From: Ruminococcus albus 7 = DSM 20455 | GTDB taxonomy: Bacteria; Bacillota; Clostridia; Oscillospirales; Ruminococcaceae | Assembly: GCF_000179635.2 (NCBI RefSeq) | Contig: NC_014824.1 | Span: forward strand, 300,001-332,000 | Reading direction: 5' to 3' | DNA length: 32,000 bases | Part shown: piece after piece, positions 8,802 to 26,997 of the stretch | Layout: each line of letters begins with the position of its first letter | Position numbering within the stretch: the first letter of the stretch is position 1 | The notes under the pieces: model-generated | What the model was told of the DNA's origin: nothing | What the model saw: the letters and a program-made list of their open reading frames with translations, nothing else | Databases searched by the model: none | Program-made: the position numbers and the translations under genes

Positions 8802-9042
8802 TCTGAACGGAGACTACATTAGAGGTTATACGACAGCTCTAATCAATGTACTGAACTTCTTTGATGATCATTCTGAAGCTATGAAAGTGAATAAGATGTA
8901 CAATCAGAACTGTGTTCGTGCTGTTCTTAACTTTCTTCTGGAAAACAAAGAGGAAATGCGAGAAACAGGAACGATCGAGGATATAGTTGTTTCAAAAGAA
9001 AAGAATAAAGTGATCATCAAAAAAATCGGACGATATTTTTGA
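8794..9042 (+). CDS. hypothetical protein (82 aa)
   Basis: ATG at 8794 after aaAGGAGaataaag; 8 nt overlap with the upstream gene. Confidence 0.6.
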   Translation: MDNLNGDYIRGYTTALINVLNFFDDHSEAMKVNKMYNQNCVRAVLNFLLENKEEMRETGTIEDIVVSKEKNKVIIKKIGRYF

Positions 9043-9054
9043 AAGGAGCGTACA

Positions 9055-9285
9055 ATGTATAATAAGTACGAAAGTAGATGGAATCTGATACAGGAGATAC
9101 TTGAACTGCAAAAACAGTATCATAAACTGTATACATCAAGTAAGATCACAAAATCAGCTATATGCGAACTTGTTGTCCCTTTCAGAGATAAATACGAGCT
9201 ATCCGATGTTGAAGCTCTTAATATAGCTAAAGAGTTTTGTAGTATGGAACGGATCGTTCGTCTTGCTGAAAAGTTGTTTCCTTGA
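9055..9285 (+). CDS. hypothetical protein (76 aa)
   Basis: RBS gaAAGGAGcgtacaATG. Confidence 0.7.
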   Translation: MYNKYESRWNLIQEILELQKQYHKLYTSSKITKSAICELVVPFRDKYELSDVEALNIAKEFCSMERIVRLAEKLFP

Positions 9286-9303
9286 ATAAGACCTGTCTTT
9301 TAC

Positions 9304-9331
9304 AAACGTCTCTCTTCGTAGGGGCGTTTTT
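9304..9331 (+). terminator. intrinsic terminator, conserved family
   Basis: AAACGTCTCTCttcgtaGGGGCGTTTTT. Confidence 0.75.
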
Positions 9332-9602
9332 ATGCTGTGTCCATAAACTGTCATTTCATCTGGATGTTAAAGTATAACGATATTGAGATTATTAATTATA
9401 TAAATTGCATAATTTTAACAATTATAACTTTATGAACTACATAATTTGCAAAAAATTATCAGATACACACTAACTTGGAAATTTCGGTAAATTTCGAGTT
9501 AAGGTGAGGTAAAACGTATTTTTGATAGGTTGACTTTCTTTCTCGAATGTGTTAAATTAAAATTGTCGCGACAAACACTATTAATTAAGGAGTAATTTAA
9601 CC

Positions 9603-11552
9603 GTGAATATAAACATAAAGTCAAAAAGAATAATTGCAGGTGTAATGGCACTTTCAATCGTATCTTCTGGTGCAATTGCATCTGAGTCAAGCGTGATAGG
9701 CAGATTAATTTTATTAAATTCGCTCTCTGCAAGTGCCGGTACTGTTTATGGTGACTGGGAATATGAAGTAACCGGAGACCACACTGCAAAGCTAGTAAAG
9801 TATACCGGCAGCGATGCAGAAATTAGTATCCCTCAGGGCATTGACGGTCATTCGATAACAGAACTTGGTGAAAATCTGTTCAGTAATAATACTAATATCA
9901 AGTCTGTAAAGATCCCCAGAGGTATCCAGAGCATACCCGGTTACTGTTTCTCAAATGCTTCAAATCTGGAATCGGTGGTAATGCCTCTCGGCGTAACAAA
10001 AATCGAGCGCGGGGCTTTTATGAATGCAAAGAGCCTCACATCAATAGCGCTGCCTCTTTCTGTTGATACCATTGAAAGCTCTGCATTTACCGGCTCGGGA
10101 ATAACTTCCATTAACATGCGGGATGTTAATGAGTTCGGCAAAAGAATTTTTACAGACTGTAAAAACCTTAAAGATGTGGTGCTTCCCGATGGCATTACAA
10201 TAATTCCCGAAAGTACATTTGAAAACTGCATCGGCATAGAGTCCATCATCCTTCCTGATGACCTGATCACTATTGAAAAGAACGCTTTCAAAGGCTGCAC
10301 AAACCTTACAGAGATAAACGCACCCGATTCGTTGACGACTATAAAAAATTCTGCTTTCATGAATTGCTCAAAGCTTAAAAAAACTCCTTGTTCAGAATCA
10401 ACGGTTTCAATTGAATTCGCTGCATTTAGAAACTGCACAGGCCTTGAATCTGTATCATTCTCAAACTCACCTACTTCGATAGGATCGTATGCTTTTGCAG
10501 GCTGCGAAAAGCTTGAATATATCTCCATTCCCGACTCAGTAGAGAAGATTGATTCAGATGCTTTCAGCGAATGTAAAGGTATCAGGTCGATAGATCTTGA
10601 TGTTAATTCAGCTACTAAATTCGGCGGATACTGTTTCAAAGGCTGTTCTTCAGTAGAAAATATAAATGTTTCCGATTTTGACATTCTGGCAGGATTGTTC
10701 GACAAAAGAACATTTTCAGGCTGCAAAGAGCTACGTACAATAAACAATGAAAGTCCCGTTATTCTTAACGGCGATAACACTGAGCCTGAGTTTACAGAAA
10801 AGTACAGAAGTGTTATAATAGAGAATTTTGATGCCATTGACGACAGTGAGCTGGGTTTCTTCAATGACTACCTTGAAGCAGAAGTAAAGTACGTTGTATC
10901 CACAAATATAACCGATGATATGTCCGATATGGAGAAGATAAAAACTCTTCATGATTGGCTCTGTAACAAGGTATTCTATAAATATATCAAGAAAAACAGC
11001 AAGTATACTCCTGATACCAGCAATTATACTCAGGTGGATTCGTCTGCATTTATCAGAAATTCAACTGTATGCGCAGGCTATGCCAAAGCACTTACACTTT
11101 TGCTCAATGAATCTGGTGTAGAAGCATATCTTCTTGTAAATTTCAGCGAACATGCATGGTGTATGGTTAGAGTTGGAGACCATTATTTTCATCTTGATGC
11201 AACACATGATGATTCAGGCTCTGATCCAAACGGTACCATAGGTTATGATCACTTCCTTATCTCGGATACCGATGTAAAAAAATGCTCTTCAGGTCATTCG
11301 AGCTGGGCGATCGATGCGCCTACAAGCCGATATAAATACACTATTCCCGACGAAATCCCCAAATGCCTCTATTCGGTAGGAGATGTAAATAAGGATGGTG
11401 TCATCAACGATGATGATGCCGACCTTATCTGGTATTACTGCAACGGCGATATCGGCTCCATAGACCTTGTTCTCGCAGATACAAACTTCGACGGCAAAGT
11501 TGACTGGGATGATTACCTGGCAGCGCTCAAACGCAAATTGCCCCGAGGATAA
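9603..11552 (+). CDS. secreted leucine-rich-repeat (BspA-type) protein with transglutaminase-like cysteine peptidase core and C-terminal dockerin
   Basis: GTG start after tAAGGAGtaatttaacc; signal peptide. Repeated ...I.IP..V..I...AF..C..L... units. VCAGYAKALTLLL...HAWCMVRVGDHYFHLDATHDD (Cys-His-Asp). Dockerin GDVNKDGVINDDDADL / ADTNFDGKVDWDDY. Confidence 0.8.
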   Translation: MNINIKSKRIIAGVMALSIVSSGAIASESSVIGRLILLNSLSASAGTVYGDWEYEVTGDHTAKLVKYTGSDAEISIPQGIDGHSITELGENLFSNNTNIKSVKIPRGIQSIPGYCFSNASNLESVVMPLGVTKIERGAFMNAKSLTSIALPLSVDTIESSAFTGSGITSINMRDVNEFGKRIFTDCKNLKDVVLPDGITIIPESTFENCIGIESIILPDDLITIEKNAFKGCTNLTEINAPDSLTTIKNSAFMNCSKLKKTPCSESTVSIEFAAFRNCTGLESVSFSNSPTSIGSYAFAGCEKLEYISIPDSVEKIDSDAFSECKGIRSIDLDVNSATKFGGYCFKGCSSVENINVSDFDILAGLFDKRTFSGCKELRTINNESPVILNGDNTEPEFTEKYRSVIIENFDAIDDSELGFFNDYLEAEVKYVVSTNITDDMSDMEKIKTLHDWLCNKVFYKYIKKNSKYTPDTSNYTQVDSSAFIRNSTVCAGYAKALTLLLNESGVEAYLLVNFSEHAWCMVRVGDHYFHLDATHDDSGSDPNGTIGYDHFLISDTDVKKCSSGHSSWAIDAPTSRYKYTIPDEIPKCLYSVGDVNKDGVINDDDADLIWYYCNGDIGSIDLVLADTNFDGKVDWDDYLAALKRKLPRG

Positions 11553-11623
11553 GCTCAGTGATTATAAATATCATCTCAGACATATTTATATCCCATGATC
11601 AACAAACTAAATAATTAAAACTA

Positions 11624-11661
11624 AAGCATCTTCTGCGAAATATATCGCAGAGGATGTTTTT
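11624..11661 (+). terminator. intrinsic terminator
   Basis: AAGCATCTTCTGCGaaatatatCGCAGAGGATGTTTTT. Confidence 0.65.
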
Positions 11662-11662
11662 G

Positions 11663-11680
11663 TGTATCACGCGTGACACT
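11663..11680. repeat. palindrome family copy P2 (TGTATCACGCGTGACACT)
   Basis: Two mismatches to the consensus; directly after a terminator T-run. Confidence 0.7.
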
Positions 11681-11758
11681 AAGTATAGAACCATCCGGCA
11701 GGGAAGTAATGTTTTTATCGTTAGGATATTTCTCATATAATATCTATGTAGAGATTTA

Positions 11759-11790
11759 TTGATAGTTCGGAGATTTTTCGGCTATTGGTA
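11759..11790 (+). promoter_or_regulatory. leader hairpin, divergent instance 5
   Basis: ttGATAGttCGGAGatttttCGgCTATtggtaa, 17 nt after TATAAT (11736-11741). Confidence 0.4.
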
Positions 11791-13535: not shown

Positions 13536-13574
13536 AAATACAGGAAAACTCGTTGCGAATGGCAAGCTTACATA

Positions 13575-13713
13575 AAAATGCCAAGAGATTCGCACTTTAT
13601 TTCGGGCGGCTCGGCGTCCGTAAATCGAGAAGTGCTCGTAAGTCTACAAATCTGTAGCCGAAGTAACTCTCGATAAGGTAAAAACAATACACATTCAATC
13701 CGTGTATTCAATT
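13575..13713 (+). ncRNA. structured scaffold RNA, copy A2, directly upstream of CRISPR array 2
   Basis: Positions 13585-13732 equal 4379-4526 except A13684 versus G4478. Confidence 0.6.
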
Positions 13714-13732
13714 TTATTTGTATAATTATGCA

Positions 13733-13900
13733 GATGCAATCTGCACTACGCAAGTGAATTGCGAGTTCGGCGTTGCTGCTTGATGAATCGGGCACTATCG
13801 ATGCAATCTGCACTACGCAAGTGAATTGCGAGGTATATTAATTTGTACAAAAGCAGTCGAACACTTTGTTGCAATCTGTACTACGCAAGTGAATTGCGAG
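13733..13900 (+). CRISPR. mini-CRISPR array 2: 3 repeats of 33 nt, 2 spacers (34 and 35 nt)
   Basis: Repeat GATGCAATCTGCACTACGCAAGTGAATTGCGAG at 13733 and 13800. Variant with 2 substitutions at 13868. Confidence 0.8.
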
Positions 13901-13991: not shown

Positions 13992-14124
13992 AAAATATTT
14001 TGCAAATTTATCAACGAGATACTACTTCATTCGTATATGATTTCAAGTGTTTTGAATGTAACGATGGCGGTAAGTGTGAAATCTGTCGTATCAAGCGGTA
14101 AAATGAATATTAAAGGAGTGCGCT

Positions 14125-14745
14125 ATGGCTGTTAAAAAGAAACTCCCTGCCTTAAAAAGGCTCATCAAGAAAATCGAAAAGGTCACGCACGTCCGTCCCG
14201 CTACGGAAGAGGAGCTTGCGGCTTTACAGAAGCTTGCAGGCGGAAAGCTCCCCGAGGAGGCTATGGAATTTTACTCACATTACAGTTTTGAGGGTATTGT
14301 GCGCATTGATGAGTATATTGATCTCTACGGCATTAACGAAATAGTCAGATGGAATACAGACGCTGTACCCGGGTTTATGGTTCTGCCGTTCGGACTTCTG
14401 ACCGTGGCTTCATGGGTAGACGGTGATGCAATCTGCATTGACCTTAACAGCGTTGGTGAAAAGTTTGGGTATGGGGGATGTTACACCACGCAGGTGATTC
14501 GTCAGTGCAGTCATGAACTTTTCAGCGAGGGCGAGGAGATCACCTTCTACAGAAAAGCACTCGGCGGTTTGGTTCGCCTGCCTTATACCCGTGAGAATGT
14601 CGTTGCGCTTTCTCCTTATGTAACCAATGACTTCAGTTATCTTCTCAAACGCCTGAGAGATGGGGAGCTTCGTTATATCGAACTTACCAAAACATTGGAT
14701 GATTACGAGAAAAAACGATTGCAGGAAACTGCTCAGGAAAGTTAA
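14125..14745 (+). CDS. SMI1/KNR4 (SUKH-1)-like protein, putative immunity protein
   Basis: RBS tAAAGGAGtgcgctATG. The N-terminal LPEEAMEFYSHYSFEG region resembles the SMI1_KNR4 signature. The segment is visibly more GC-rich than its flanks. Confidence 0.5.
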   Translation: MAVKKKLPALKRLIKKIEKVTHVRPATEEELAALQKLAGGKLPEEAMEFYSHYSFEGIVRIDEYIDLYGINEIVRWNTDAVPGFMVLPFGLLTVASWVDGDAICIDLNSVGEKFGYGGCYTTQVIRQCSHELFSEGEEITFYRKALGGLVRLPYTRENVVALSPYVTNDFSYLLKRLRDGELRYIELTKTLDDYEKKRLQETAQES

Positions 14746-14752
14746 CATCACA

Positions 14753-14785
14753 AGCCGAATGTTCATCGAGAGCGTTCGGCTTTTG
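14753..14785 (+). terminator. intrinsic terminator
   Basis: AGCCGAAtgttcatcgagagcgTTCGGCT followed by TTT. Confidence 0.7.
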
Positions 14786-15081
14786 GGTAAAAGAACAAAT
14801 AGCTTTATAGCAAAGATATACGGCTGTTTAGATGAATCGTTAGATGCACATACCACAATGGCATACATTAACCGTAAGGCTCTCGGAAACGCTGTGAAAG
14901 CGTTCCTGAGGGCTTTTTGGCGTTGAAACAGACAAATATGGAAAAAGGTTGCGCAACTGATGCGTTATGCAACCTTAATTATGGGAGCGAAATCTTATAT
15001 ATGATTATTGGGCTTTTAACTGTGATATGAAGCTTTTTTATTATTGCAAATTTTCACGTAAAATAAAATTGTAGATGTTAA

Positions 15082-15113
15082 TTGATAACATAGGAGACCA
15101 GACAGATTATTGA
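15082..15113 (+). promoter_or_regulatory. conserved 5' leader hairpin (instance 6)
   Basis: ttgataacaTAGGAGACCAGACagattattga. The stem changes G to A, converting a G-U wobble pair to A-U, so pairing is kept. Confidence 0.55.
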
Positions 15114-15156
15114 TAAATATTCTCAAATAACTATAAAACCAAAAGGAGTAATTGCT

Positions 15157-15414
15157 ATGAAAGGAATAATGCCGGATCATAAAGAATGGAGAAAGAAAAG
15201 ATACAAGATATTCAATGAAAAAATAAACTATTTTAAAGATCATCCCAAATATGAATGGCTGAGGAAATATGCAGATGATGCAATGAACGCAAATGAAGGG
15301 TTTGGTTATCTGATGATAAAAGGAGCAGACTTTATAGAAAGAATTGAAAAAATGCCTCTTGAATATATCAGAGACTGGCTCAACGGAAAAAATAAACTGG
15401 AATGGACAACATAA
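15157..15414 (+). CDS. hypothetical protein (85 aa)
   Basis: RBS aaAAGGAGtaattgctATG. Confidence 0.7.
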   Translation: MKGIMPDHKEWRKKRYKIFNEKINYFKDHPKYEWLRKYADDAMNANEGFGYLMIKGADFIERIEKMPLEYIRDWLNGKNKLEWTT

Positions 15415-15452
15415 AACAGCAAGCAAGAAAAATAACCGATAATTTGTCTTTT

Positions 15453-15482
15453 AAACGTTCCTCACACGAGGGGCGTTTTTTT
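15453..15482 (+). terminator. intrinsic terminator, conserved family
   Basis: AAACGTTCCTCacacGAGGGGCGTTTTTTT. Confidence 0.75.
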
Positions 15483-15591
15483 CATCATACAAGAATAGAA
15501 GATGTTGACTACAATTTGTTTTTTTGATATAATAATCAAGGAAATATTAAAAAGGAAAAATTATCTTCTGTTATAATAGTATAAAACTTGT

Positions 15592-15609
15592 TGTGTCACG
15601 CGGGACACA
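15592..15609. repeat. palindrome family copy P3 (TGTGTCACGCGGGACACA)
   Basis: One mismatch to the consensus. Confidence 0.75.
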
Positions 15610-15697
15610 AATAAAATGTTCCCTATAAAAACCTTTTTTGCAGGGACGTTTTCATCGATAAAGATTTTCTTCTATAATTATCTTAGATCTAAAAATT

Positions 15698-15728
15698 TTG
15701 ATAATCGGAGTCGGAATCAACAGATCAG
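15698..15728 (+). promoter_or_regulatory. leader hairpin instance 7, heading a decapitated cassette
   Basis: ttgataatCGGAGTCggaatcaACAGAtcag after TATAAT (15673-15678). Followed by AAAGGAG RBS and ATG CAC TAT TAA (15753-15764). Confidence 0.5.
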
Positions 15729-15852
15729 TTTACAGTAAAGGAGAAAATTGAAATGCACTATTAATCATCAAAAGAAATCCCGAACTATATAAAATTTTTC
15801 TCAAAAAGAATAACAGCAACAATAAATAACACTGTGATATTCATATTATCCA

Positions 15853-15975
15853 GGGCGGCTTAACGCCCTTAAATCGAAACAATGCGTCGTAAACCGCTAT
15901 ACAGCGTTGATCGTATACTCGATAAGGTAATATCTCAGCAATGAGATCAAAATTATACGCATAAAATCCGCGTAG
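15853..15975 (+). ncRNA. structured scaffold RNA, copy C, upstream of the Cas12f/TnpB-like gene
   Basis: Same helix order as A1/A2 with compensatory changes: GGGCG/CGCCC (15853-15868), ATCGA/TCGAT (15873-77 with 15919-23), CGCT/AGCG (15895-15906), TACGC/GCGTA (15956-15974) with conserved loop A-AATCC. It has one extra hairpin, ATCTCA/TGAGAT (15932-15947). Confidence 0.55.
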
Positions 15976-16072
15976 ACAGTGAACATAACTATATAAGAAT
16001 GTGAGCTGTAAGTTATATAATGATATTGGAGTATTGATGTGTCCTTCAAAAAAATCTTAAGGAGTAATAAAA

Positions 16073-17434
16073 ATGACTAAAGTAGTAAAATTAGCGTTAA
16101 TAAGCAATGTAACCGATAAAGATGGAAACAAAGTTGAATACAATGAATTAAACAGATGCCTATGGGATCTTCAAAAAGAAACCAGGGACCTGAAAAATGC
16201 TGTAGTAAGAGAATGCTGGGAATGGTACGGATTCACCAACGATTATTATAAACTTAACGAAGAATATCCGAATGAAAGAGATTATCTGAAAAAGGCAAAG
16301 TCTGACGGAACGATTAAAGATTATGCTTTGGATGGATTTATATATGCTAAATACAGCAAAAAATACAATCTTCATTCAGGAAACTATTCACAAACATTAA
16401 GAGACGCCTGCGGAAGCTTTAAAAATAATCTCAAAGAAATATTAAGAGGAGATAAGAGCATTTTAAGTTATAGAGCCGATCAGCCTCTGGATATCAAGAA
16501 GACCTGTATCGGACTGGAATACGATAAGGACACAAACACTTATTATGTAACTCTTGTTCTGCTAAACAAAAATGGCGTCAAGCATTATAATATCAGTGAT
16601 TTCAGATTTAAGATAACCGTAAAGGATAATTCAACAAGAACGATCCTTGAACGTTGTTTTGATGGAGTATACGGCATAAGCGCAAGTAAGCTTATCTGGA
16701 ACAGAAAGAAGAGTCAGTGGTTTTTAAATCTCTGCTATTCATTCGATAAAGTAGAGGTAAAGGAACTTGACAAGAAAAAGATACTGGGAGTAAATCTCGG
16801 TGTTTACTACCCTTTATACGCTTCAATATCCGGAGAAAAGGATAGACTAGCGATCTCTGGTGATGAAATAATCGAATTCAGGAAACGAATAGAGGCTAGA
16901 AGGACAGCTCTGAAGAAACAGGCTGCTGTGTGCGGAGATGGAAGGATAGGTCATGGTTATAAAACCAGGATGAAACCATTACAGAATGTCTCTGATAAGA
17001 TAGCAAATTTCAGAGATACCTTTAATCACAAAGCAAGTAAAAAGCTAATTGATTTTGCAATCAAAAATGATTGTGGGATCATCCAGCTCGAAAATCTTAA
17101 AGGAGTAACAAAAAATTCAGAAGGATTCCTCAAAAACTGGTCTTTTTATGATCTTCAGAGTAAGATCGAAAATAAGGCGAAAGAAAGAGGGATAAAAGTT
17201 GTTTATATTGAACCTGCTTACACAAGCCTGAGATGCTCAAAATGCGGATGTATACACAAAGATAATCATCCGACCAGAGAGCAGTTTATCTGTCAAGAGT
17301 GTGGGTATAGGGTTCTGCATGATTACAATGCCAGCCAGAACATTGCTGTCAAGGATATAGACAAGATAATAAAAGCTGAACTTGAAAAGACGGAACCGGA
17401 AAAGAAAACAGAGGAAGAAAAGCCCGAGAAGTAA
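16073..17434 (+). CDS. miniature Cas12f/TnpB-like RuvC protein (453 aa) with Asn at the RuvC-I catalytic position
   Basis: RBS tAAGGAGtaataaaaATG. RuvC-I context KKILGVNLGVYYP (N241, AAT 16793-16795, where the family has GxDxG). RuvC-II IIQLENLKG (E340). Zinc finger CSKCG...CQECG. RuvC-III HDYNASQNIA (D417). GDGRIGHGYKTRMKPL resembles the Gly/Arg/Lys-rich linker I recall from Cas12f. Confidence 0.8.
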   Translation: MTKVVKLALISNVTDKDGNKVEYNELNRCLWDLQKETRDLKNAVVRECWEWYGFTNDYYKLNEEYPNERDYLKKAKSDGTIKDYALDGFIYAKYSKKYNLHSGNYSQTLRDACGSFKNNLKEILRGDKSILSYRADQPLDIKKTCIGLEYDKDTNTYYVTLVLLNKNGVKHYNISDFRFKITVKDNSTRTILERCFDGVYGISASKLIWNRKKSQWFLNLCYSFDKVEVKELDKKKILGVNLGVYYPLYASISGEKDRLAISGDEIIEFRKRIEARRTALKKQAAVCGDGRIGHGYKTRMKPLQNVSDKIANFRDTFNHKASKKLIDFAIKNDCGIIQLENLKGVTKNSEGFLKNWSFYDLQSKIENKAKERGIKVVYIEPAYTSLRCSKCGCIHKDNHPTREQFICQECGYRVLHDYNASQNIAVKDIDKIIKAELEKTEPEKKTEEEKPEK

Positions 17435-17468
17435 GTTCATGTAAAATAATGTGATGATAATATTTTTA

Positions 17469-17589
17469 GGGCGACTTAACGTCCTAAAATCGAGGCGATT
17501 AATCCTGATTGCTGACTAAAGGCTGGCAGGCAATAAAGCTGCGTTATCCGTTGTATGCAGAAGAATAAAAACGATCACAAAATTAATCT
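17469..17589 (+). ncRNA. partial or diverged scaffold copy D plus repeat-like remnant, 3' of the effector gene
   Basis: GGGCGacttaaCGTCCTAAAATCGAGG starts 35 nt after the stop codon, preceded by TGATGATAAT (-10-like). Contains GGCAGGCAATAAAGCTGCG, which resembles repeat 1 (GGCAGGTAAATTGCGAG). Ends with AAAACGATCACAAAATTAATCT, shared with the trailer of array 2. Confidence 0.4.
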
Positions 17590-17597
17590 GAGAAAAA

Positions 17598-17626
17598 GGC
17601 TTTGTTTTAGTGACAGAGCCTTTTTT
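17598..17626 (+). terminator. intrinsic terminator
   Basis: GGCTTTGttttagtgaCAGAGCC followed by TTTTTT. Confidence 0.7.
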
Positions 17627-17641
17627 GGCAGCTGTATGTTT

Positions 17642-17659
17642 TGTGTCACGCGTGACACA
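17642..17659. repeat. palindrome family copy P4 (perfect TGTGTCACGCGTGACACA)
   Basis: Perfect 18 bp palindrome, 20 bp with the flanking T/A. Lies 33 nt upstream of TATAAT 17692-17697. Confidence 0.85.
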
Positions 17660-17713
17660 AGCGAAAGATATTATCGATTTCACTTTTCTTGTATAATAAC
17701 AACATAGATGTTA

Positions 17714-17745
17714 TTGATAACTGGCGAAGATAAATAAGTTATCGA
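17714..17745 (+). promoter_or_regulatory. leader hairpin instance 8
   Basis: ttGATAACTggcgaagataaataAGTTATCga. Perfect 7 bp stem; loop is a variant (GGCGAAGATAAA). Confidence 0.5.
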
Positions 17746-17780
17746 AGACACTAAATGATTATTATATGGAGGAATTCAAA

Positions 17781-18581
17781 ATGAAAGAATTTAAAAATGC
17801 AAACAATGGAACATCTGAGAAAAACAACATAAACGGCACTATCATTTCAGATATAATTGTAACTATCTTTTCAAGCAAGAAGGAGAATAGTTCGTTAAAT
17901 CAAGAAATGATAAAAAGGAGAGCGGAGATAATTGAAGATATCGGTATTCACAGTAAGCCTTCAGGAGGAGATAACTTCTGGCTTTTCTATGAAAATTATA
18001 TTTTTTCAAAGAAAGAACACGACAAAATAAAGGCTATAGTAGATAAGTACTCATCTGAACATTATTTTAATGAACTGGTGCATATAGATATGAACTGTCT
18101 TTATGATTATACCGAAAGTGGCACTATCACTCTGAGTACAAGAGTCAGAATATCTGATCTGTGCTATGATATGGATACCTGGTGTGCAGGAAGTCTTGAA
18201 AACGTTCTTCCGGGAACATATAACTGTTTTGTTCAGAAAACAGGAGAGGGAAGAGTTGCAGGGATCAAAATAGTTCACGAAGAATACGATCCTGAAGAAT
18301 ATGAACCTGATGAACTTCAGGATATTGACGTAGGAGTGGATTCGGGTGAATGTGGAATTTACGATGAAGAATATTTCGCAAAAAACTGTAAGGACCAAGA
18401 CTGGTATGAATCCACATACGTGCTGAGAGATGGAATGCCTCTAGATGATAAAGCATTTATAAGCAGTTCTGGATACGGCGATGGAAGTTACGAATGCTTT
18501 GTTGCAAGAAATACCGAAGGAAAGATCGTAGCTATAAAGATATTATTCATTGACTTTGAGAACGATGAGGAGGAAGAATGA
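17781..18581 (+). CDS. hypothetical protein, DUF4241-like C-terminal half (tentative)
   Basis: ATG at 17781 after GGAGGaattcaaa. Contains DVGVDSGECGIYDEEYF and SSSGYGDGSYECFV, motifs I associate with DUF4241. Confidence 0.6.
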   Translation: MKEFKNANNGTSEKNNINGTIISDIIVTIFSSKKENSSLNQEMIKRRAEIIEDIGIHSKPSGGDNFWLFYENYIFSKKEHDKIKAIVDKYSSEHYFNELVHIDMNCLYDYTESGTITLSTRVRISDLCYDMDTWCAGSLENVLPGTYNCFVQKTGEGRVAGIKIVHEEYDPEEYEPDELQDIDVGVDSGECGIYDEEYFAKNCKDQDWYESTYVLRDGMPLDDKAFISSSGYGDGSYECFVARNTEGKIVAIKILFIDFENDEEEE

Positions 18582-19054
18582 TGATCTATAAGGAAGAAGT
18601 AAGGGACTTATTTACAACTTCAGATGATTACATCCTCGTCCATTGCATAAGTTCTGACTTTGCTTTGGGCGCAGGGATCGCAAAGAAATTCGCTCAGATG
18701 GGCGTGAAAGAAAAACTTGTGAAAAACTATCCGAAGAACTGGGAAGGTCATGGATATATGATACCTGTCGGTCTTAAGGATAAAATGGTAGCAAATCTCA
18801 TCACTAAAGAAAAGTATTGGATGAAACCCACCTATGATACACTCAGGGAAAGTCTTGAGAATTTAAAGAATTGGGTGATTGATGAAAATTATTTGCCTTG
18901 GGGAGATATACGGCCTATAGGAATTCAACGGAAGTTGGCTATGCCACTAATCGGCTGCGGATTGGATAAACTAAAATGGGATAATGTCAGACAGATCATA
19001 AAAGAAGTATTTGAGAACACTGATATAGAGATCCTTGTTTGTCTGTACAAATAG
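18578..19054 (+). CDS. macrodomain protein, TARG1/OARD1- and DarG-like ADP-ribose hydrolase fold
   Basis: HCISSDFALGAGIAKKF, LITKEKYWMKPTYDTLRESLENLK and MPLIGCGLDKLKWDNVRQIIKEVF match, block for block, the human TARG1 sequence as I recall it, including the catalytic Lys and Asp positions. ATGA overlap with the upstream gene. Confidence 0.75.
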   Translation: MMIYKEEVRDLFTTSDDYILVHCISSDFALGAGIAKKFAQMGVKEKLVKNYPKNWEGHGYMIPVGLKDKMVANLITKEKYWMKPTYDTLRESLENLKNWVIDENYLPWGDIRPIGIQRKLAMPLIGCGLDKLKWDNVRQIIKEVFENTDIEILVCLYK

Positions 19055-19117
19055 TCGCTTAAATTTCCTTAAGAACAAACAATAAATATGCTATAGAAAT
19101 GTATGGAGAAGTTCATT

Positions 19118-19246
19118 ATGAAAGAATTTAATGTAACAATTATCGAAACGCTTAAAAGGACTGTAACAGTTGAAGCTGAGGACTTATCAGGAGTTGAGTT
19201 TGAGACTCAGGAAGATAATACTGAAGCAGAAATAGAAACCGGATAA
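19118..19246 (+). CDS. small hypothetical protein (42 aa)
   Basis: ATG at 19118 after GGAGAagttcatt: MKEFNVTIIETLKRTVTVEAEDLSGVEFETQEDNTEAEIETG. Below the ORF-track size cutoff. Possibly a shortened DpnD/PcfM-like protein. Confidence 0.4.
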   Translation: MKEFNVTIIETLKRTVTVEAEDLSGVEFETQEDNTEAEIETG

Positions 19247-19280
19247 GGTGCGCAAACTGATAGCTTATAGAAACAGTGTG

Positions 19281-19310
19281 GCGTCTCTCTTTTGTGGGGA
19301 GACGCTTTTT
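19281..19310 (+). terminator. intrinsic terminator, conserved family
   Basis: GCGTCTCTCttttgtgGGGAGACGC followed by TTTTT. Confidence 0.75.
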
Positions 19311-19315
19311 ATGTT

Positions 19316-19333
19316 TGTGTCACACGTGACACA
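19316..19333. repeat. palindrome family copy P5 (TGTGTCACACGTGACACA)
   Basis: One central substitution; directly after the terminator. Confidence 0.8.
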
Positions 19334-19438
19334 TTATAACTGCTGCAACGAGGAAAAATAATTAAAGGTATTAGAAATGCAGCGACAGGGCCTTTTTGTC
19401 GTATTAAGTTTTCGTATATAATATAGATAGAATGCATT

Positions 19439-19470
19439 ATCGATAATCTGGGGTCAGACAGGTTATAGAT
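19439..19470 (+). promoter_or_regulatory. conserved 5' leader hairpin (instance 9)
   Basis: atcgataatCTGGGGTCAGACAggttatagat after TATAAT (19417-19422). Confidence 0.55.
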
Positions 19471-19522
19471 GCTAAAATTATAGATATAAACGTAAAAATA
19501 GCAGAAAAAAAAGGGTGATATT

Positions 19523-19729
19523 ATGATATACTATTGGGTAGCAGTAAACCGCAATTGCAAATTGGCAGGTGGAGTAAGAAACATAATTAAATCGGAAACG
19601 AACAAAGAAGAAGTACTAAAGAAAGATTATTATGAGGACTATAATAAATATCCAGGTGATCACTTCGTGCTTTTTAATACACTTAGGAAAGCACAGGAAT
19701 ATGCAGATAAGCTATCAGAAGAAAGCTAA
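19523..19729 (+). CDS. hypothetical protein (68 aa)
   Basis: ORF track; purine-rich aaaaGGGTGatattATG. Confidence 0.6.
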   Translation: MIYYWVAVNRNCKLAGGVRNIIKSETNKEEVLKKDYYEDYNKYPGDHFVLFNTLRKAQEYADKLSEES

Positions 19730-19964
19730 TGGAGAAACAGACAAGAAGAACTTAACAGAATTAGAAAAACTAAAAAGAAAAGACAATGATCTCTATTTCA
19801 GTAACGGAAAACCGAAAAAAATGCACATGATGTGCCGTGATCCTTCCTATATCAGAGAAATAATTCACATTAATGGAAGGTATATTTTGGATTGGTGCTG
19901 TGCCGGAGGCAGGTGTCCTTTCTATTCTACGGGCTGCGATGACAAAGGCAGAGAATGGGAGTAA
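19701..19964 (+). CDS. hypothetical Cys-rich protein; start uncertain
   Basis: ORF open from 19632. ATG at 19701 is the candidate start but has a weak RBS. C-terminal part contains CC...C...C. Confidence 0.4.
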   Translation: MQISYQKKANGETDKKNLTELEKLKRKDNDLYFSNGKPKKMHMMCRDPSYIREIIHINGRYILDWCCAGGRCPFYSTGCDDKGREWE

Positions 19965-20260
19965 TAATTGTGGATATACTTAAGATAATTGGTACAACAG
20001 AAGACGAGTTGGAAATGGCAATGGCTCTTTCAGTAGTGAATCAGTATCTTGCTAACGAAACAGAGCAGGGTACAAAGGTCGGATTCGAGTATAACGGACA
20101 GTTTATCAGTAATATTTTTTTTGATGAAACAGGTAGAACAGACCTTTCCTTAGAAGAAGCTGTATCGAAGTACGGAATAAAGGAAGTTAAAAAGTTCTAT
20201 CATGATGTTCTGAATGATTATGATGTATGGCTGGAAGCTGAAAGACAAGCTCTAGATTAA
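19955..20260 (+). CDS. hypothetical protein (101 aa)
   Basis: ORF track; overlaps the upstream ORF by 10 nt. Confidence 0.55.
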   Translation: MGVIIVDILKIIGTTEDELEMAMALSVVNQYLANETEQGTKVGFEYNGQFISNIFFDETGRTDLSLEEAVSKYGIKEVKKFYHDVLNDYDVWLEAERQALD

Positions 20261-20284
20261 ACAAAATTACAAGAAGAATATACT

Positions 20285-20419
20285 ATGGCAAATTATAATT
20301 TCAGGCTGCTTAATGATTGTTCATCGGGTGAGTATGAGTTAAACGAGACAGGTGCTTGGATCAATGAAGCAAGCGGCAGTAAAGACTGGGACGGCTATAT
20401 TTGCGAAGTGCTTATATAA
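20285..20419 (+). CDS. small hypothetical protein (44 aa)
   Basis: ATG at 20285, TAA at 20417-20419: MANYNFRLLNDCSSGEYELNETGAWINEASGSKDWDGYICEVLI. Fills an otherwise empty gap in the operon. Confidence 0.4.
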   Translation: MANYNFRLLNDCSSGEYELNETGAWINEASGSKDWDGYICEVLI

Positions 20420-20467
20420 TAAATGCAAGCTCAAAACACTATATGAGACAATACAGAGGGATCAATC

Positions 20468-20788
20468 ATGGCAGAAGCAGAACGTAACATACTTGTTATA
20501 ATAAGAGGCATACCAAGTGTGCATCTTAAAGGTCATGTATCTCGACACTTCATTATAGGTGGGATGCGTTATGAGTATACGACCGGGACACAGGAATGCT
20601 CTGAAGAAGAGTTTATTGCTGCTTGTGAATCTAAAGGCTGGAAATGTATGATAGAAAATAACATCATCTACATTCAAGGAAAACACCATAAGGTGTTCAT
20701 TGAACCTGAAGGAATGGTATTCATTGATGGCTATCCTTATTCTATAGAAGATCAGATATACGAACAAAACAAAAAATTTAGGTATTAA
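20468..20788 (+). CDS. hypothetical protein (106 aa)
   Basis: ORF track; acAGAGGGatcaatcATG. Confidence 0.6.
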   Translation: MAEAERNILVIIRGIPSVHLKGHVSRHFIIGGMRYEYTTGTQECSEEEFIAACESKGWKCMIENNIIYIQGKHHKVFIEPEGMVFIDGYPYSIEDQIYEQNKKFRY

Positions 20789-20801
20789 ATAAGGAGTAAT
20801 T

Positions 20802-20996
20802 ATGCTGGATAAAAAGACAGAAGATAAAATAGAAACTCATCTTTTGAGTGCCGCAAAACTGCTCAGGAAGTTACAATTTGATGACTGGGCTTCCGATTTA
20901 GAAGCAGCTTCACACGCAATTCAGAAGGATTTTGAGGAAGAAGATAACGAATATACAAGAAAATTCGGCTTCAGTCACAGGGAAGTCGAATTATAG
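20802..20996 (+). CDS. hypothetical protein (64 aa)
   Basis: RBS tAAGGAGtaattATG. Confidence 0.65.
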   Translation: MLDKKTEDKIETHLLSAAKLLRKLQFDDWASDLEAASHAIQKDFEEEDNEYTRKFGFSHREVEL

Positions 20997-21018
20997 GTCA
21001 ATATCCATATTAGTTAAG

Positions 21019-21049
21019 AAACGTCTCTCCTCGGAGGGGCGTTTCTTTT
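21019..21049 (+). terminator. intrinsic terminator, conserved family
   Basis: AAACGTCTCTCctcgGAGGGGCGTTTCTTTT. Confidence 0.75.
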
Positions 21050-21129
21050 ATACTATGGAATATGCATTGGCAGGAAAAAAACGATTATATAATCTGTTGT
21101 TTTCTGCTATAATCAATAAAGAAACATCA

Positions 21130-21160
21130 TTGATAGCCTGGAGGTCAGACGGGTTGTTTA
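21130..21160 (+). promoter_or_regulatory. conserved 5' leader hairpin (instance 10)
   Basis: ttgatagccTGGAGGTCAGACgggttgttta, 16 nt after TATAAT (21108-21113). Stem ATAGCC/GGTTGT differs compensatorily from ATAGCTT/AAGTTGT at 7470. Confidence 0.6.
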
Positions 21161-21208
21161 CTATTTTGAATTGTCAAATACAATATATAGAAATCGGAGG
21201 AATTACAA

Positions 21209-21727
21209 ATGTCAACTAAAATATATAACGGATTTCGTATGAGGGAATTATCCTCAAATGAACTTATTGTTTTCATCAATGAATTAAGAGAAAAGATCTC
21301 ACCTACAGTCCATAACGCTTTTTGCATTGGTATTATACAAATAGCATCAAAAATAATTACTAAGTGCATAGAATACAACTTTGACTTTGAAGGAACTCCC
21401 GAAAAGGCGGAAAATGTAGAAAAATTCCTGAGAAGTTACTATCTTGCAAGTCTGACAACGACAACAATGGCTCAGAGAGCTCTTGGTAAGATGGATAAGG
21501 TGATCGATGATCTGGAATGGCCTTTTATCGGTGGCGTTATAAACATGGCTATTAATATTTACAAAAATGATACTATGAACGAAAACAAACAGTCTTGCTA
21601 CAATGACGTCAGAAGTAGTATTGCGCTACTTCAGGGCAGCAAAGAAAAGACTTTATTCATGACGTTCGGAAATGTTTTCACAGACTGTATGTACGAACTT
21701 ATAAAAAAGAACGATGAGCTCGTGTGA
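21209..21727 (+). pseudogene. 5' fragment of a hypothetical gene split by the TnpB element
   Basis: RBS atcGGAGGaattacaaATG. The frame stops inside the IS end hairpin. The frame resumes at about 23622 and runs to 24176. Confidence 0.6.
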
Positions 21728-21831
21728 AGCCTCACACGACTAAAGTCGCGTGCTTCCTATAGTATCCTTACGGACACGCCCACTTTAGGCAGGCGGACTA
21801 CGTTTCTACCATACAGCCTGAACTCAGAAAA

Positions 21832-23157
21832 TTATGCTGTTTGAGCGATAAATTCCGCATTCAGGTTAACTAAGGTAGAGAACGTGCAGGTGCTTCTCTT
21901 ACTGCATTGAGGTACTTTAGCCTCAATGAGCAACCTTGAATTCTCATCCAAGGATTTTAATATTTCACGTATGAAGTATCTTGCCCCTATATTATACGAA
22001 GCAGATAGATCGCAGTTGTAGGTCTTGCCATTTTGAAATTTGCATAGCTCATAGGTATTGAAACCACCGAATTTACCACGAAGTACAAAACCACTGCCAT
22101 CGTATGCAAGGCGTGACGTATTCCATGCACAGATATGGCTTACTCTCATACCTAGTCTGTGAGCTTTATTCGTTACAATAGACTGAACTTCCTGACTGCG
22201 CCACAGCTTGAGCTTCTGCTTTTTAGAACCGCGGACCTTACCGTTCTTGTCTAAATGCTCAAATACAATAACATCTGCATTATAAAGAACGGCTATATCT
22301 ACGATGCAGGCAGCAGTTTTAGTGGCAATGTCGTGATTGATTCCTTTGGCTTTTGCCCAAAGCCTTGGTGTTTTATAGTTACCATGCTGCTGAGCTTTTT
22401 TTATACGGTTAATGCTATGCATCAGATGGTCTGTTTCTTTGGTAAGCTTACAAAAATGCCTTCCAAGAATAGTGCCATCTGAACGCATTACGGAAACCGT
22501 AGCTGCGGTGTTGATCCCAAGGTCTACAGCAACAATGGTCTGCTCATACACAGATATATCTGCCAGTTTGACCTTTTCCTCAAACGGAAAGTCCAAAAAC
22601 CACTTCTTGCCTCGTTTTTGAAGTGTTGGAGCGCATTCCTTGCGAAACCTGCAATATCTGTATATATAATCCATATCAGACTTTTTAAGGTTTATAGTTA
22701 TCCAGTCCCATGTATTACGGATATAGACTTTGATCTGGGCAGTATAATCACCGGTCTGATTGTACATTACTGTACGATACATAGACGGGAATGAATAACC
22801 TGCTTTTGGATACGATGGTTCTCTGCCTACAGAATCTTTGATCCAGTTATCGAAATTGCTTTTGTAAGATGATACCTTGCCTATAGCCTCGTTAATAGCA
22901 CCACGGCGCAGATAGCTTGGCATCTTATAGAATTTGGCATCAAAATCATAAATTGGATCGGGATTATCTTTTGTAGCATGGATCAGTGTTTCAATATATG
23001 TGAGTCTACTCACCCCTTTGAATGTAACAATGTTATCCCAATGATCCAGACAAACGCTGATAAGGTAATCTACAGCATGTCTGTATTCGATAACGGTATC
23101 TTTGAAAATGTTGTTGTAATGCTTGATCTTAACGCTGTATGTCGTATATATCTGCAT
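21832..23157 (-). CDS. tnpB: TnpB-like RNA-guided endonuclease (441 aa), RuvC triad intact
   Basis: RBS AAGGAGGG upstream. RuvC-I IVAVDLGINTAA, RuvC-II VIVFEHLD, RuvC-III YNCDLSASYNIGARY. AWNTSRLAYDGSG replaces the usual CxxC zinc finger. Confidence 0.8.
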   Translation of the reverse strand: MQIYTTYSVKIKHYNNIFKDTVIEYRHAVDYLISVCLDHWDNIVTFKGVSRLTYIETLIHATKDNPDPIYDFDAKFYKMPSYLRRGAINEAIGKVSSYKSNFDNWIKDSVGREPSYPKAGYSFPSMYRTVMYNQTGDYTAQIKVYIRNTWDWITINLKKSDMDYIYRYCRFRKECAPTLQKRGKKWFLDFPFEEKVKLADISVYEQTIVAVDLGINTAATVSVMRSDGTILGRHFCKLTKETDHLMHSINRIKKAQQHGNYKTPRLWAKAKGINHDIATKTAACIVDIAVLYNADVIVFEHLDKNGKVRGSKKQKLKLWRSQEVQSIVTNKAHRLGMRVSHICAWNTSRLAYDGSGFVLRGKFGGFNTYELCKFQNGKTYNCDLSASYNIGARYFIREILKSLDENSRLLIEAKVPQCSKRSTCTFSTLVNLNAEFIAQTA

Positions 23158-23332
23158 ACTGCAGACTCCCTCCTTATACTTGTTTTTTTGAGAATTAATG
23201 TAATCTGTTACATGTTTATGTTTAAGACTTCTGTCGCTTACAGTTGCTACAAAATACGATGGATTCCATATATATTATAGCAGATTTATTTAAGAATAAA
23301 AAATTATATATACTTAAAAGTTGTTCTGTGTT

Positions 23333-23350
23333 TGTGTCACGCGTGACACA
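23333..23350. repeat. palindrome family copy P6 (perfect; part of a ~33 bp extended palindrome) inside the TnpB element
   Basis: TTCTGTgTTTGTGTCACGCGTGACACAAACAGAA. Confidence 0.85.
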
Positions 23351-23621
23351 AACAGAATTCAAATTTTCTTTTTATGAGGTTTAAGATGCAGAAAGACAGC
23401 TAATCTTACTCACTTAGATGTCTTTCACTTAAGAATTATAGTATTTGACATTCTTAAGTGAGGCTTACAGTTTACAAGACGAAGTATATGATCAGGACTT
23501 CTGTATTTGGTAGTTCTTACGATATGGTATTACAATGAATATACATACCCTCGACCATGCACAACAGAATGTCTAGAAATGCCGCCTAACTCATGACTAA
23601 AGTCACGAGCGTGCAGCGGCA

Positions 23622-24176
23622 AAATCGTCAAAGTACGAAATTGAAGAGTACGGCTATTGGAACAATACAGATGAGCCAGACGGAATCACAAATGAGGAAT
23701 GGAAGAATTGTGGAGATGACTGGGACGCAGCATTACCCGGTTTAGGCGTCCCTTCAAGATGCGGTCTGTGTTCTTCCGATCTTATCGATCCTGATGTTCT
23801 ATTTTCCGAAATAAAAATGGCTGAGGATGGAAGAATGAGGAAAATTATAAATGATTTTTCACTATTAAAATACGTTCATGCGTTAGTTTGCGATAAAACT
23901 ATAAGCCACTTTGTAAAGATGGACAGTGAGTATGATGAAAAACTGTCATCGACTTATGCTTTAGTGGTAAAATACAGAGAAAAAATAGAAAAAGACGATC
24001 CTCAGATGAAGGATTATGCGGATAAGCTTGAAAACGAGATGATAGAACAGATATCGGACCGTTCCATAGAAGAAATACTATCTGGAAGCATACTCGAACT
24101 ACTACCGAAATATACAAGCTATAAAAAAATGCGGAATGAAGGAGGAAATGATTATGATAATCAAGTATCATCATAA
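23622..24176 (+). pseudogene. 3' fragment of the gene split by the TnpB element
   Basis: The frame is open upstream of the ORF-track ATG (23817), back to about 23622: ...KSSKYEIEEYGYWNNTDEPDGITNEEWKNCGDDWDAALPG... Confidence 0.55.
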
Positions 24177-26167: not shown

Positions 26168-26915
26168 TGTAACCGAAAACCCCCGGCTATGCCGGGGGTT
26201 CTAAAAAGCTTTAGCTATGAGTAGAAAAATAAAACCTCCTGTGATAAACTAAGAATAGGTCTGGCAACCGAAACTTAGAATAACAAGGAGGTATCGTCAA
26301 TGACAAGAGACGATATAAATAGTTTAGCACATTCCAAGTGGAATTGCAAGTACCATGTAGTATTTGCCCCGAAATATCGAAGAATGGTGATTTATAATAA
26401 AATCAAAGTGGATATCGGAAAGATACTAAGAAAGTTGTGTGATCAAAAAGGAGTTAAAATAATCGAAGCAGAGGCGTGTCCTGATCATATACATATGCTG
26501 TTGTCTATTCCACCCAAATACAGTGTAGCAGAGATAATGGGATATTTGAAAGGCAAGAGTAGTTTGATGATATTTGACAGACACGCAAATCTGAAATATA
26601 AGTATGGCAACAGGCACTTCTGGTGCAGAGGATACTATGTTGATACAGTAGGAAAGAACAAGAAAAAGATAGCAGAGTACATCAGGAATCAGTTGCAGGA
26701 AGATATAGTGTGCGACCAGATCAGCCTGTTTGAGACAGTAGACCCATTTACAGGAGAAAAATACAAGAAAAAGTAGAAAACGAACACAAAATACCCCTTG
26801 AGGGGTTGCACGGGAATGAAATGCGGTTGACAGACCTTTCCCGACCCCTTAAGGGGTAGTGTCAGTATCATGCCCTTATAGGGCTAGTGCAAACCACCCG
26901 TTTAACGGGTGGTTT
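26168..26915 (+). mobile_element. IS200-type element (tnpA only); boundaries approximate
   Basis: Left hairpin AACCCCCGGCtatGCCGGGGGTT (about 26180-26202). Several right-end hairpins: CCCCTTgaGGGG, CCCCTTAAGGGG, GCCCTtatAGGGC, ACCACCCGtttaaCGGGTGGT (about 26795-26915). Confidence 0.75.
26300..26776 (+). CDS. tnpA: IS200/IS605-family Y1 (HUH) transposase TnpA
   Basis: HUH motif PDHIHMLL; catalytic Tyr context RGYYVDTVG; size 158 aa. Confidence 0.9.
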   Translation: MTRDDINSLAHSKWNCKYHVVFAPKYRRMVIYNKIKVDIGKILRKLCDQKGVKIIEAEACPDHIHMLLSIPPKYSVAEIMGYLKGKSSLMIFDRHANLKYKYGNRHFWCRGYYVDTVGKNKKKIAEYIRNQLQEDIVCDQISLFETVDPFTGEKYKKK

Positions 26916-26933: not shown

Positions 26934-26997
26934 ACCCAAAAAATAAAACGTTCCACCGAAGTGAAACGTCTGGAAAAAATATTTTCTCTTTATTCTT

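Follow-up and report, generated by a model that had tools for sequence, protein, structure and literature searches.

A dispersed parS-like palindrome in an accessory region of Ruminococcus albus 7, its linkage to parA/parB in related mobile elements, and its possible role at cassette junctions

Plasmid RK2 carries 12 OB sites of the sequence TTTAGCSGCTAAA. The sopC locus of the F plasmid is a tandem repeat array with inverted repeats, and the SopB sites of the prophage-plasmid N15 are dispersed in promoter regions. Integron attC sites measure 57-141 bp, form imperfect palindromes that include R''/L''/L'/R' boxes and extrahelical bases, and are read by IntI as folded single strands. KorB of RK2 belongs to the ParB family and acts as a CTP-dependent clamp; from the scattered OB sites where it is loaded, it can silence promoters lying far away (PMC11790492). 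Canonical chromosomal parS (TGTTNCACGTGAAACA) is bound by Spo0J/ParB (PMC7022226). In mycobacteriophages, a monomeric immunity repressor recognises stoperators, 13-bp sites that lack symmetry and act according to their orientation (PMC9283540), and HerB/YfjB, a leading-region ParB-like protein of the F plasmid, binds regions of the host chromosome without a consensus inverted repeat (PMC13370423). The present analysis concerned a 20-bp palindrome repeated in a 32,000-nt stretch of Ruminococcus albus 7 = DSM 20455 (contig NC_014824.1, positions 300,001 to 332,000; this whole stretch is referred to as the window). It is most likely a variant parS-like binding site of the centromere type for a ParB of Ruminococcus plasmids and conjugative elements.

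The 20-mer TTGTGTCACGCGTGACACAA was present in the window in six copies with <=3 mismatches plus one degenerate copy, while 100 dinucleotide-preserving shuffles gave 0 such matches (expected 0). The 14-nt core (<=3 mismatches) gave 8 matches against a shuffle mean of 0.5 and a maximum of 3; it added the copy at 26915-26934, and one of the eight, at 9685, was a chance match in a coding region. A repeat finder independently recovered the palindrome family (families D5 and D6). The repeated palindrome in this cassette-rich region had been reported in a preliminary description of the same DNA and was confirmed by these counts; the coordinates given there were those of the 18-mer within each 20-mer and were hence shifted by 1. 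All window copies followed, apart from the mismatches listed below, the form TGTGTCAC-NN-GTGACACA, namely two 8-bp half-sites with a 2-bp spacer (8+2+8), and all seven fell within 20.6 kb (6276-26934), because the same-strain contigs covering ~8 kb upstream and ~8.7 kb downstream of the window held no further copy. The copies (P1 to P7) and the terminators beside them were as follows, with coordinates given as window positions:

P1, 6276-6295: palindrome copy TTGTGTCACGCGTGATACAA, 1 mismatch, 12 nt past the stop of a dockerin protein gene (5152-6264)
P2, 11662-11681: palindrome copy GTGTATCACGCGTGACACTA, 3 mismatches, abutting the terminator 11626-11661, with the next TATAAT (11736-11741) 54 nt away
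P3, 15591-15610: palindrome copy TTGTGTCACGCGGGACACAA, 1 mismatch, 3' of a near-consensus promoter (15505-15533), with TATAAT (15673-15678) 62 nt further on
P4, 17641-17660: perfect palindrome copy, 14 nt after the terminator 17593-17626 and 31 nt before TATAAT (17692-17697) of the DUF4241 operon
P5, 19315-19334: palindrome copy TTGTGTCACACGTGACACAT, 2 mismatches, centre AC, 4 nt after the terminator 19280-19310, with TATAAT (19417-19422) 82 nt further on
P6, 23332-23351: perfect palindrome copy with an imperfect extension to 23316-23367, within a TnpB insertion sequence (IS), 52 nt upstream of the minus-strand TGcTATAAT of tnpB
P7, 26915-26934: degenerate palindrome copy TTGATTCACGCGTGATAAAA, 3 mismatches to the 14-nt core, abutting the hairpin 26892-26916 at the right end of an IS200 copy
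11626-11661, plus strand: intrinsic terminator immediately upstream of P2
17593-17626, plus strand: intrinsic terminator upstream of P4
19280-19310, plus strand: intrinsic terminator upstream of P5

The terminator adjacency claimed for four copies was borne out: P2, P4, and P5 followed terminators at 0, 14, and 4 nt, respectively, and P7 abutted a hairpin that is probably part of the end of the IS200 copy; contigs from the same strain break off at 26891. P1 came before a terminator, not after one, being followed by a long terminator hairpin (6298-6373), and its counterpart was perfect in the related islands L081 and L090 (L-numbers denote loci gathered via the motif or via ParB homology). The mirror-form variant half-sites described for P1 and P2 were merely single substitutions. 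P6 was indeed a perfect and extended copy, but it lay inside a 1,909-bp TnpB-only IS and not at a cassette boundary.

Since P2, P4, and P5 lay between a terminator and a promoter, the palindrome belonged there to neither the upstream nor the downstream transcript, and this placement suggests that the site acts on DNA, not on RNA, at these three positions. The hairpins formed as single-stranded DNA (ssDNA) were weak (-1.3 to -6.7 kcal/mol; -10.9 kcal/mol for the extended P6), and that of P2 was essentially lost (-1.3 kcal/mol, z +0.3). On either strand, the flanks were rich in T 5' of the palindrome and rich in A 3' of it. A role as intrinsic terminator was rejected, as there was no U-tract and the 3' flanks were A-rich on both strands; the terminator scan flagged P3 alone, on the minus strand. 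A generic promoter scan of the window was uninformative (67 sites vs 72 expected).

In relatives, palindromes lay within or beside a parAB operon in L052, L062, L003, L078, L101, L102, L122, L126, and L132. In L052, two palindromes 121 bp apart bracketed the promoter of a parA-parB operon, whose first gene matched AAA_31/CbiA and whose second matched ParB_N plus HTH_ParB in Pfam. A tblastn search with the L052 ParB found homologues in L062, L003, and L078, where a palindrome lay at the parB stop or at most ~10 nt past it and was the sole copy of the locus in L003 and L078; the same kind of search against PLSDB gave no match. The test was also run in reverse: a profile of four ParBs collected 168 homologues, and their contexts were fetched without reference to the motif. 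The resulting homologue clusters (four-digit P-numbers) displayed the following arrangements: (i) in P0004, the cluster into which the ParB of the R. albus 7 replicon of 420,706 bp falls, and in P0135, which comes from R. albus 8 and a contig of 419 kb, the same palindrome pair flanked the parA promoter and further copies stood upstream of a neighbouring Phd/PIN operon, with an additional copy upstream of a helix-turn-helix (HTH)-S24 gene at the P0004 loci; (ii) P0041, P0022, P0062, and P0058 harbored 5-17 copies of AGTGTGTCAC-S-GTGACACACT, with the same half-site and a 1-bp spacer, in conjugative elements encoding NikA, relaxase, ParA, and ParB, and in some cases a single-stranded DNA-binding protein (SSB), a Lar-like protein, and a resolvase; (iii) P0010 had a single TGTGTCC-CAC-GGACACA between parA and parB; and (iv) P0091 had no palindrome, being the only such cluster among those fetched by ParB homology. 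The par loci differed in their central dinucleotide, with GC in one part of them and AC/GT in another; AC/GT, the centre of P5, was also that of the par locus of R. albus 8.

The 21-bp palindrome AGTGTGTCAC-S-GTGACACACT stood at almost every gene boundary in L111 (4600-17300), L115 (4000-17750), and L119. Such conjugative relatives carried 14-17 palindromes per element, 3-15 nt upstream of the next ribosome-binding site, compared with 5-6 copies around the par loci and 7 in 20.6 kb of the window; SSB and a resolvase were encoded by L111 and L115, and a Lar-like match was found in L111. A further arrangement was seen in two Rep_3-type plasmid contigs, L058 (1-630 and 5457-6400) and L073 (5395-5590 and 6049-6570), where a 153-bp unit containing one palindrome and two iterons was repeated in tandem at least 4-7 times; the Rep_3 initiator gene of L073 lay beside nine 22-bp iterons (ATAGGTACCATTAAAATCCA). 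By analogy, these arrays resemble the layout of a sopC- or inc-kind maintenance locus. They share with sopC tandem units that each contain one inverted repeat, and the sites share with those of N15 the dispersal of putative centromere sequences through a genome, in promoter regions; they differ from both in the 153-bp unit, which also holds two Rep iterons.

The ParBs matched Noc, Spo0J, and ParB structures in PDB with E values of 1e-18 to 1e-11, and KorB weakly (E 1e-3); ParB_N was detected by Pfam, and Box III read ESNIQRD or ESNTRTD. The half-site TGTGTCAC agreed with the canonical parS half-site TGTTNCAC (PMC7022226) at 7/8 positions. Half-sites were nearly invariant across 41 copies, in elements whose genes were 72-80% identical at the nucleotide level. 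The recognition helix varied together with the spacer: KFG[VI]S.K[ST]IYRY, the type of the R. albus 7 protein ADU23900.1, invariably occurred with a 2-bp spacer, KFD[IV]S[KR]KTMYRY, the type of P0062 and of a sister ParB clade, invariably with a 1-bp spacer, and S(D/S)TTVYRY without a site, so that spacing was 8+2+8 at KFG-type loci and in the window and 8+1+8 at KFD-type loci, with no N0 (8+8) copy in any locus. Compared to canonical parS, the palindrome has a nearly identical half-site, the same protein family, and parAB adjacency in relatives, but it shows the spacings 8+1+8 or 8+2+8 instead of 8+8 and is located intergenically on plasmids and integrative and conjugative elements, often far from par genes. 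The CcpA cre, Rex, CRP/FNR, and GlnR boxes were rejected as identities of the palindrome, as they did not fit in spacing or half-site.

The motif was further sought as the exact 18-mer in one GTDB representative genome for each of 185,579 species, and 18 loci were found in the GTDB representatives and 51 in JGI metagenomes. The low-GC matches were Ruminococcus or rumen contigs, many with multiple copies, and the motif recurred in low-GC Ruminococcus plasmids, megaplasmids, and integrative/conjugative elements; high-GC matches and viral 16-mer matches looked like chance. The five exact 18-mers of Ruminococcus sp. Marseille-P6503 were confined to two 8-kb stretches of one 1.3-Mb contig; R. albus AR67 had two. 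Because the Marseille-P6503 copies were confined in this way, the palindrome was not a genome-wide repeat of the repetitive extragenic palindromic (REP) kind, and the uniform chromosomal spread that the preliminary description had named as refuting evidence was absent from this contig. REP elements or bacterial interspersed mosaic elements mobilised by a REP-associated tyrosine transposase were likewise rejected: five and two exact copies contrast with the tens to hundreds expected, and the IS200 TnpA gene (26300-26776) had a degenerate copy on one side only, without an inverted flanking pair. All-against-all BLAST across the motif loci found only dockerin/leucine-rich repeat (LRR) proteins and the TnpB IS as shared proteins. 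A literature search for the motif returned only primers or unrelated matches, and as far as the searched literature shows, this family of sites is previously undescribed.

Two other settings of the palindrome were observed in these searches. An identical 20-mer occurred on five contigs of ~50% GC (L002, L005, L006, L011, and L012) of the Bacteroidaceae metagenome-assembled genome Red_deer_4_mag_4, surrounded by arrayed short palindromes of other sequence whose cores read ACGYRT (ttccacgtatggaa and ttcccacgcatgggaa); these arrays look like a REP-like family of a different phylum and are probably unrelated or convergent. In L083 (1037-2700) and L008 (1717-2236), tandem cassettes encoded a 25-aa hydrophobic peptide (MDVIYIALAILLLVALTEAIKSIKK) with the look of a type I toxin; the cassettes had long complementary 5'/3' arms and were bracketed by the palindrome and a symmetric variant (GTCTGTCACGCGTGACAGAC), and a serine recombinase gene followed the last cassette copy in L083.

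The invariant sequence, the placement in untranscribed gaps, the recurrent par linkage, and the parS-like half-sites together point to a sequence-specific DNA-binding protein, for which ParB is the best candidate. The proposed protein would be a ParB with an HTH like that of Noc/Spo0J; its genes would reside on megaplasmids and integrative/conjugative elements of Ruminococcus, and its dimer would read two half-sites TGTGTCAC placed 2 bp apart, the central dinucleotide (GC or AC/GT) being free. With sites dispersed over the accessory region in non-coding gaps, typically terminator-to-promoter gaps in the window, loaded ParB would mark the DNA for partition and would silence or insulate neighbouring operons, like KorB at the OB sites of RK2. 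The identity of the binder as ParB, its silencing action, and the presence of a cognate ParB gene in this genome are inferences. Since the copies stay identical while their flanks diverge, the sites would also be preferred junctions for the gain, loss, and exchange of modules. Taken as a whole, with the palindromes as scattered sites where ParB is loaded or acts on operators, as in KorB-OB, and which double as cassette junctions, this interpretation is given about an even chance of being right.

Among the roles offered in the preliminary description, ParB-like loading sites received the best support, from the linkage to parB and the parA promoter and from the clade-dependent spacing, whereas the accompanying argument from a truncated methyltransferase at the window start, as a clue to a ParB fusion, failed, the full-length 361-aa protein in L036 having N6_N4_Mtase only and no ParB domain. 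The operator of a dimeric regulator, also offered there, is compatible with ParB, as in KorB. The proposal and the KorB-OB system of IncP-1 RK2 have in common a ParB-family protein, a short multi-copy palindrome on a mobile element both near and far from promoters, and, as proposed, partition combined with global or long-range silencing. They differ in the Firmicute host and low-GC element, in parS-like half-sites instead of TTTAGCSGCTAAA, in ParBs whose match to Noc/Spo0J (E 1e-18) is far better than that to KorB (E 1e-3), in that no KorA-like partner was identified, and in a site density of up to one per gene in relatives. Stoperators are similar in that a single repressor-binding site recurs dozens of times in the short gaps between genes of an operon, a placement also seen in the relatives here, and they suggest blocked transcript elongation as a mechanism; the present sites differ in being symmetric and ParB-linked. 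HerB is comparable as a ParB-like gene among small early/anti-restriction genes of a conjugative element, but here a sharply defined palindrome is located on the element itself.

Several observations weigh against the ParB interpretation. No parA/parB was found in the window or in the ~8 kb upstream and ~8.7 kb downstream of it, nor was a ParB seen in L058 and L071, which together account for 84% of a contig of 27.8 kb that has at least 13 sites. The half-sites are 1-2 bp further apart than in every characterised parS, the covariation of spacer and clade rests on two clades, and the prediction drawn from it failed in P0010, whose helix (...KTIYRY) came without the predicted 2-bp-spacer site. 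In the CTP pocket, Box II has GHHR or GRHR in place of GERR. The density of 14-17 sites in 14 kb, each 3-15 nt before a ribosome-binding site within operons, is unusual for parS, and such intra-operon sites would be equally in keeping with an element acting at the RNA level. Finally, a single lineage of elements could simply have inherited ParB and the palindromes together.

The role as junction was examined by comparing related elements. Between L111 and L115 (72-80% nucleotide identity), homology blocks started or stopped at the palindrome edge at most junctions; at nucleotide resolution, the two were homologous up to the palindrome and unrelated immediately beyond it. The GntR gene of L115 was inserted directly after a resident palindrome as a unit of ribosome-binding site, gene, and palindrome. 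Homology between the window and L054 started at position 17684, which is 24 nt beyond the right edge of P4, and L054 had its own terminator and palindrome followed by an extra reverse-strand gene. Across all loci, breakpoints were ~5-fold enriched within 15-30 bp of palindromes, an enrichment confounded by the intergenic position of the sites. A 3-kb segment (8802-11788) carrying two small open reading frames (ORFs), an LRR-transglutaminase-dockerin protein, and P2 was missing from L081 and L090; its breakpoints showed a 3-nt microhomology (..GATAA|GTGTTT..) 107 nt from P2, with no palindrome at the left side. The mosaic junctions may be explained by the sites being the only perfect identity between diverged elements or by recombination activity on the sites.

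These junctions lead to the view that the palindromes are recombination sites, where crossovers are made by a site-specific recombinase or where identical linkers serve homologous or microhomology recombination, the ParB linkage being incidental; this is possible but unlikely. It accounts for the breaks between L111 and L115, the inserted GntR unit, the enrichment of breakpoints, and the breakpoint 24 nt from P4, and it would further fit the palindromes at the unit junctions of the tandem toxin cassettes and of the 153-bp arrays, as well as the serine or tyrosine recombinase genes at array ends in L083, L111, L115, L008, and L062. However, the only recombinases of the window were IS transposases, the P2-carrying indel did not break at a palindrome on its left, and homology tends to end in intergenic gaps anyway, which confounds the enrichment. 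Judged from established architectures, symmetric sites of 17-20 bp with an odd-length variant also fit serine or tyrosine core sites poorly, and recombination alone leaves the conserved site pair around the parA promoters unexplained. A bolder version, in which the palindromes are the recombination sites of an undescribed integron-like cassette system of Firmicute conjugative elements, is quite improbable. Units of ribosome-binding site, ORF, and palindrome would be captured and shuffled at the palindrome, with the reaction mediated or licensed by ParB, whose N-terminal domain has a fold that nucleases are known to share, or by the resolvase at the array ends; ParB would use the same sites to shut the array down once the element is established in a new host. 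With integron attC, the present sites share the position directly after a cassette ORF, the co-orientation of cassettes, and homology breaks at the site in relatives, but they are 17-20 bp long, perfect, and sequence-invariant. Of the attC-like role advanced in the preliminary description, the cassette junction thus held in relatives (L111 vs L115), while the likeness to attC itself did not, given perfect palindromes of this length and no integron integrase; none of the IntI type was detected in the window by Pfam.

Two further explanations keep or dispense with a DNA-binding protein. Another dimeric regulator could repress many element promoters, either an XRE/CI-type HTH protein (HTH_3-Peptidase_S24) or a host factor, but this is distinctly unlikely. 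An HTH_3+Peptidase_S24 gene indeed lay between palindromes just upstream of parA in L052, L101, and L102, a small XRE HTH gene converged on parB in L111-L117, sites stood 31-82 nt upstream of -10 boxes, and the half-site T(G/A)TCAC resembles lambda-type operators; yet the S24 repressor was missing from L062, L003, L078, and L122-L125, all of which carried sites, Pfam detected no HTH protein among the window ORFs, most sites did not overlap a core promoter, and many in relatives lay inside operons with no promoter nearby. A structural hairpin acting without a dedicated protein, either as an mRNA stabiliser or processing signal or as a REP-like hairpin of transferred ssDNA, is highly improbable. 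The palindromes of L062, L080, L003, L078, L111, and L115 were located 0-5 nt after a stop and 3-30 nt before a ribosome-binding site and were therefore transcribed; moreover, some variants altered both arms symmetrically (GTCTGTCAC..GTGACAGAC and TGTGTCAT-T-ATGACACA), and an IS200-type Y1 transposase gene adjoined P7. This is opposed by P2, P4, and P5 standing after efficient terminators and before promoters, by the weakness of the ssDNA hairpins and the loss of that of P2, by the missing U-tract with T-rich 5' and A-rich 3' flanks on both strands, by the low genomic copy number (five exact 18-mers in Marseille-P6503), by the lack of an Rfam family match, and by the conservation of the sequence, and not of pairing alone, across diverged elements.

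If ParB binds, the palindromes would represent a parS class with expanded spacing in the essentially unstudied megaplasmids and conjugative elements of gut and rumen Firmicutes. They would then provide a Gram-positive counterpart of KorB-OB, in which one ParB serves dozens of sites (one per gene in some elements), and a scheme for silencing or insulating a whole region of accessory and early-entry genes. The same sites, being the seams of cassette mosaicism, would link the site of a maintenance protein to cargo exchange. As a marker, the motif could delimit mobile DNA in Ruminococcus genomes and predict the cognate ParB clade.

The window was of low GC (~36%), with nearly all genes on the plus strand, and exact protein matches placed it in a Ruminococcus-type genome (GCA_000621285.1) and in several sequencing runs. 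Pfam identified a truncated N6_N4 methyltransferase, dockerin and LRR proteins, SUKH-1, DUF4241, DUF4314, and a SpoVS-like protein, and, as the four genes related to ISs, those for one IS1595 transposase, two TnpB proteins, and IS200 TnpA; among the 40 ORFs, it detected no HTH regulator, ParB, or site-specific recombinase other than the IS transposases. Rfam gave no match in the window at the gathering threshold, and megablast of window positions 14000-24000 gave none among PLSDB plasmids and INPHARED phages. Two insertions were delimited next to palindrome copies:

21723-23631, minus strand: TnpB-only IS605-family element of 1,909 bp, carrying P6 and interrupting the ORF that starts at 21209 (Pfam OrfB_IS605)
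6438-7464, plus strand: IS1595-family insertion (Pfam) with 33-nt inverted repeats, starting some 140 bp beyond P1 on its right and missing in L081 and L090

The TnpB-only IS was 95% identical to its counterparts in R. albus AR67 (L013) and in L074, and the otherwise collinear L054 had an empty site for it. The stretch comprising P6 and the tnpB promoter (23273-23350) showed 77-83% identity to the parA promoter-operator regions of L052, L071, L076, L101, and L102, and the IS thus appears to carry a ParB-type operator. This IS was widespread in rumen contigs (L013, L074, L059, L060, L066, L084, and L010). The IS1595-family insertion is outside the palindrome system.

The first tnpB (16073-17434) was accompanied by the hairpin motif GCTTAACGCCCTAAAATCGA, found upstream of it at 15858 and just downstream at 17474; the hairpins around this gene are probably the ends of that IS. 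Two CRISPR-like mini-arrays were present: (i) five 32-nt repeats (GATGCAATCTGTACAGGCAGGTAAATTGCGAG) with spacers of 33-37 nt at 4527-4824 and (ii) three repeats (GATGCAATCTGCACTACGCAAGTGAATTGCGAG) at 13733-13900, the latter followed by a solo copy of GCTTAACGCCCTAAAATCGA at 13971. Both were preceded by a common leader of ~190 nt (4349-4540 and 13555-13746, 95% identical). The window contained no cas genes, and the sole effector candidate was the TnpB/Cas12f-like gene 16073-17434.

The intergenic regions of the window are built of reused modules (terminators, promoters, and 5'-untranslated region (UTR)-like elements). Six similar intrinsic terminators (AAACGTCTCTC..GAGGGGCGTTTTT) were located at 9301, 12361, 15450, 21016, 24362, and 25597, promoter-like modules recurred as one set at 15644, 17663, and 29925 and another at 2984, 19407, 28341, and 30970, and the 5'-UTR-like element TTGATAGCTTGGAGGTCAGACAAGTTGTTGA recurred at 1772, 7466, and 21126. 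Downstream of the DUF4241 operon, a 30-nt copy of the DUF4241 gene start (19102-19131 vs 17765-17794, 87% identical) is probably the remnant of a duplicated cassette.

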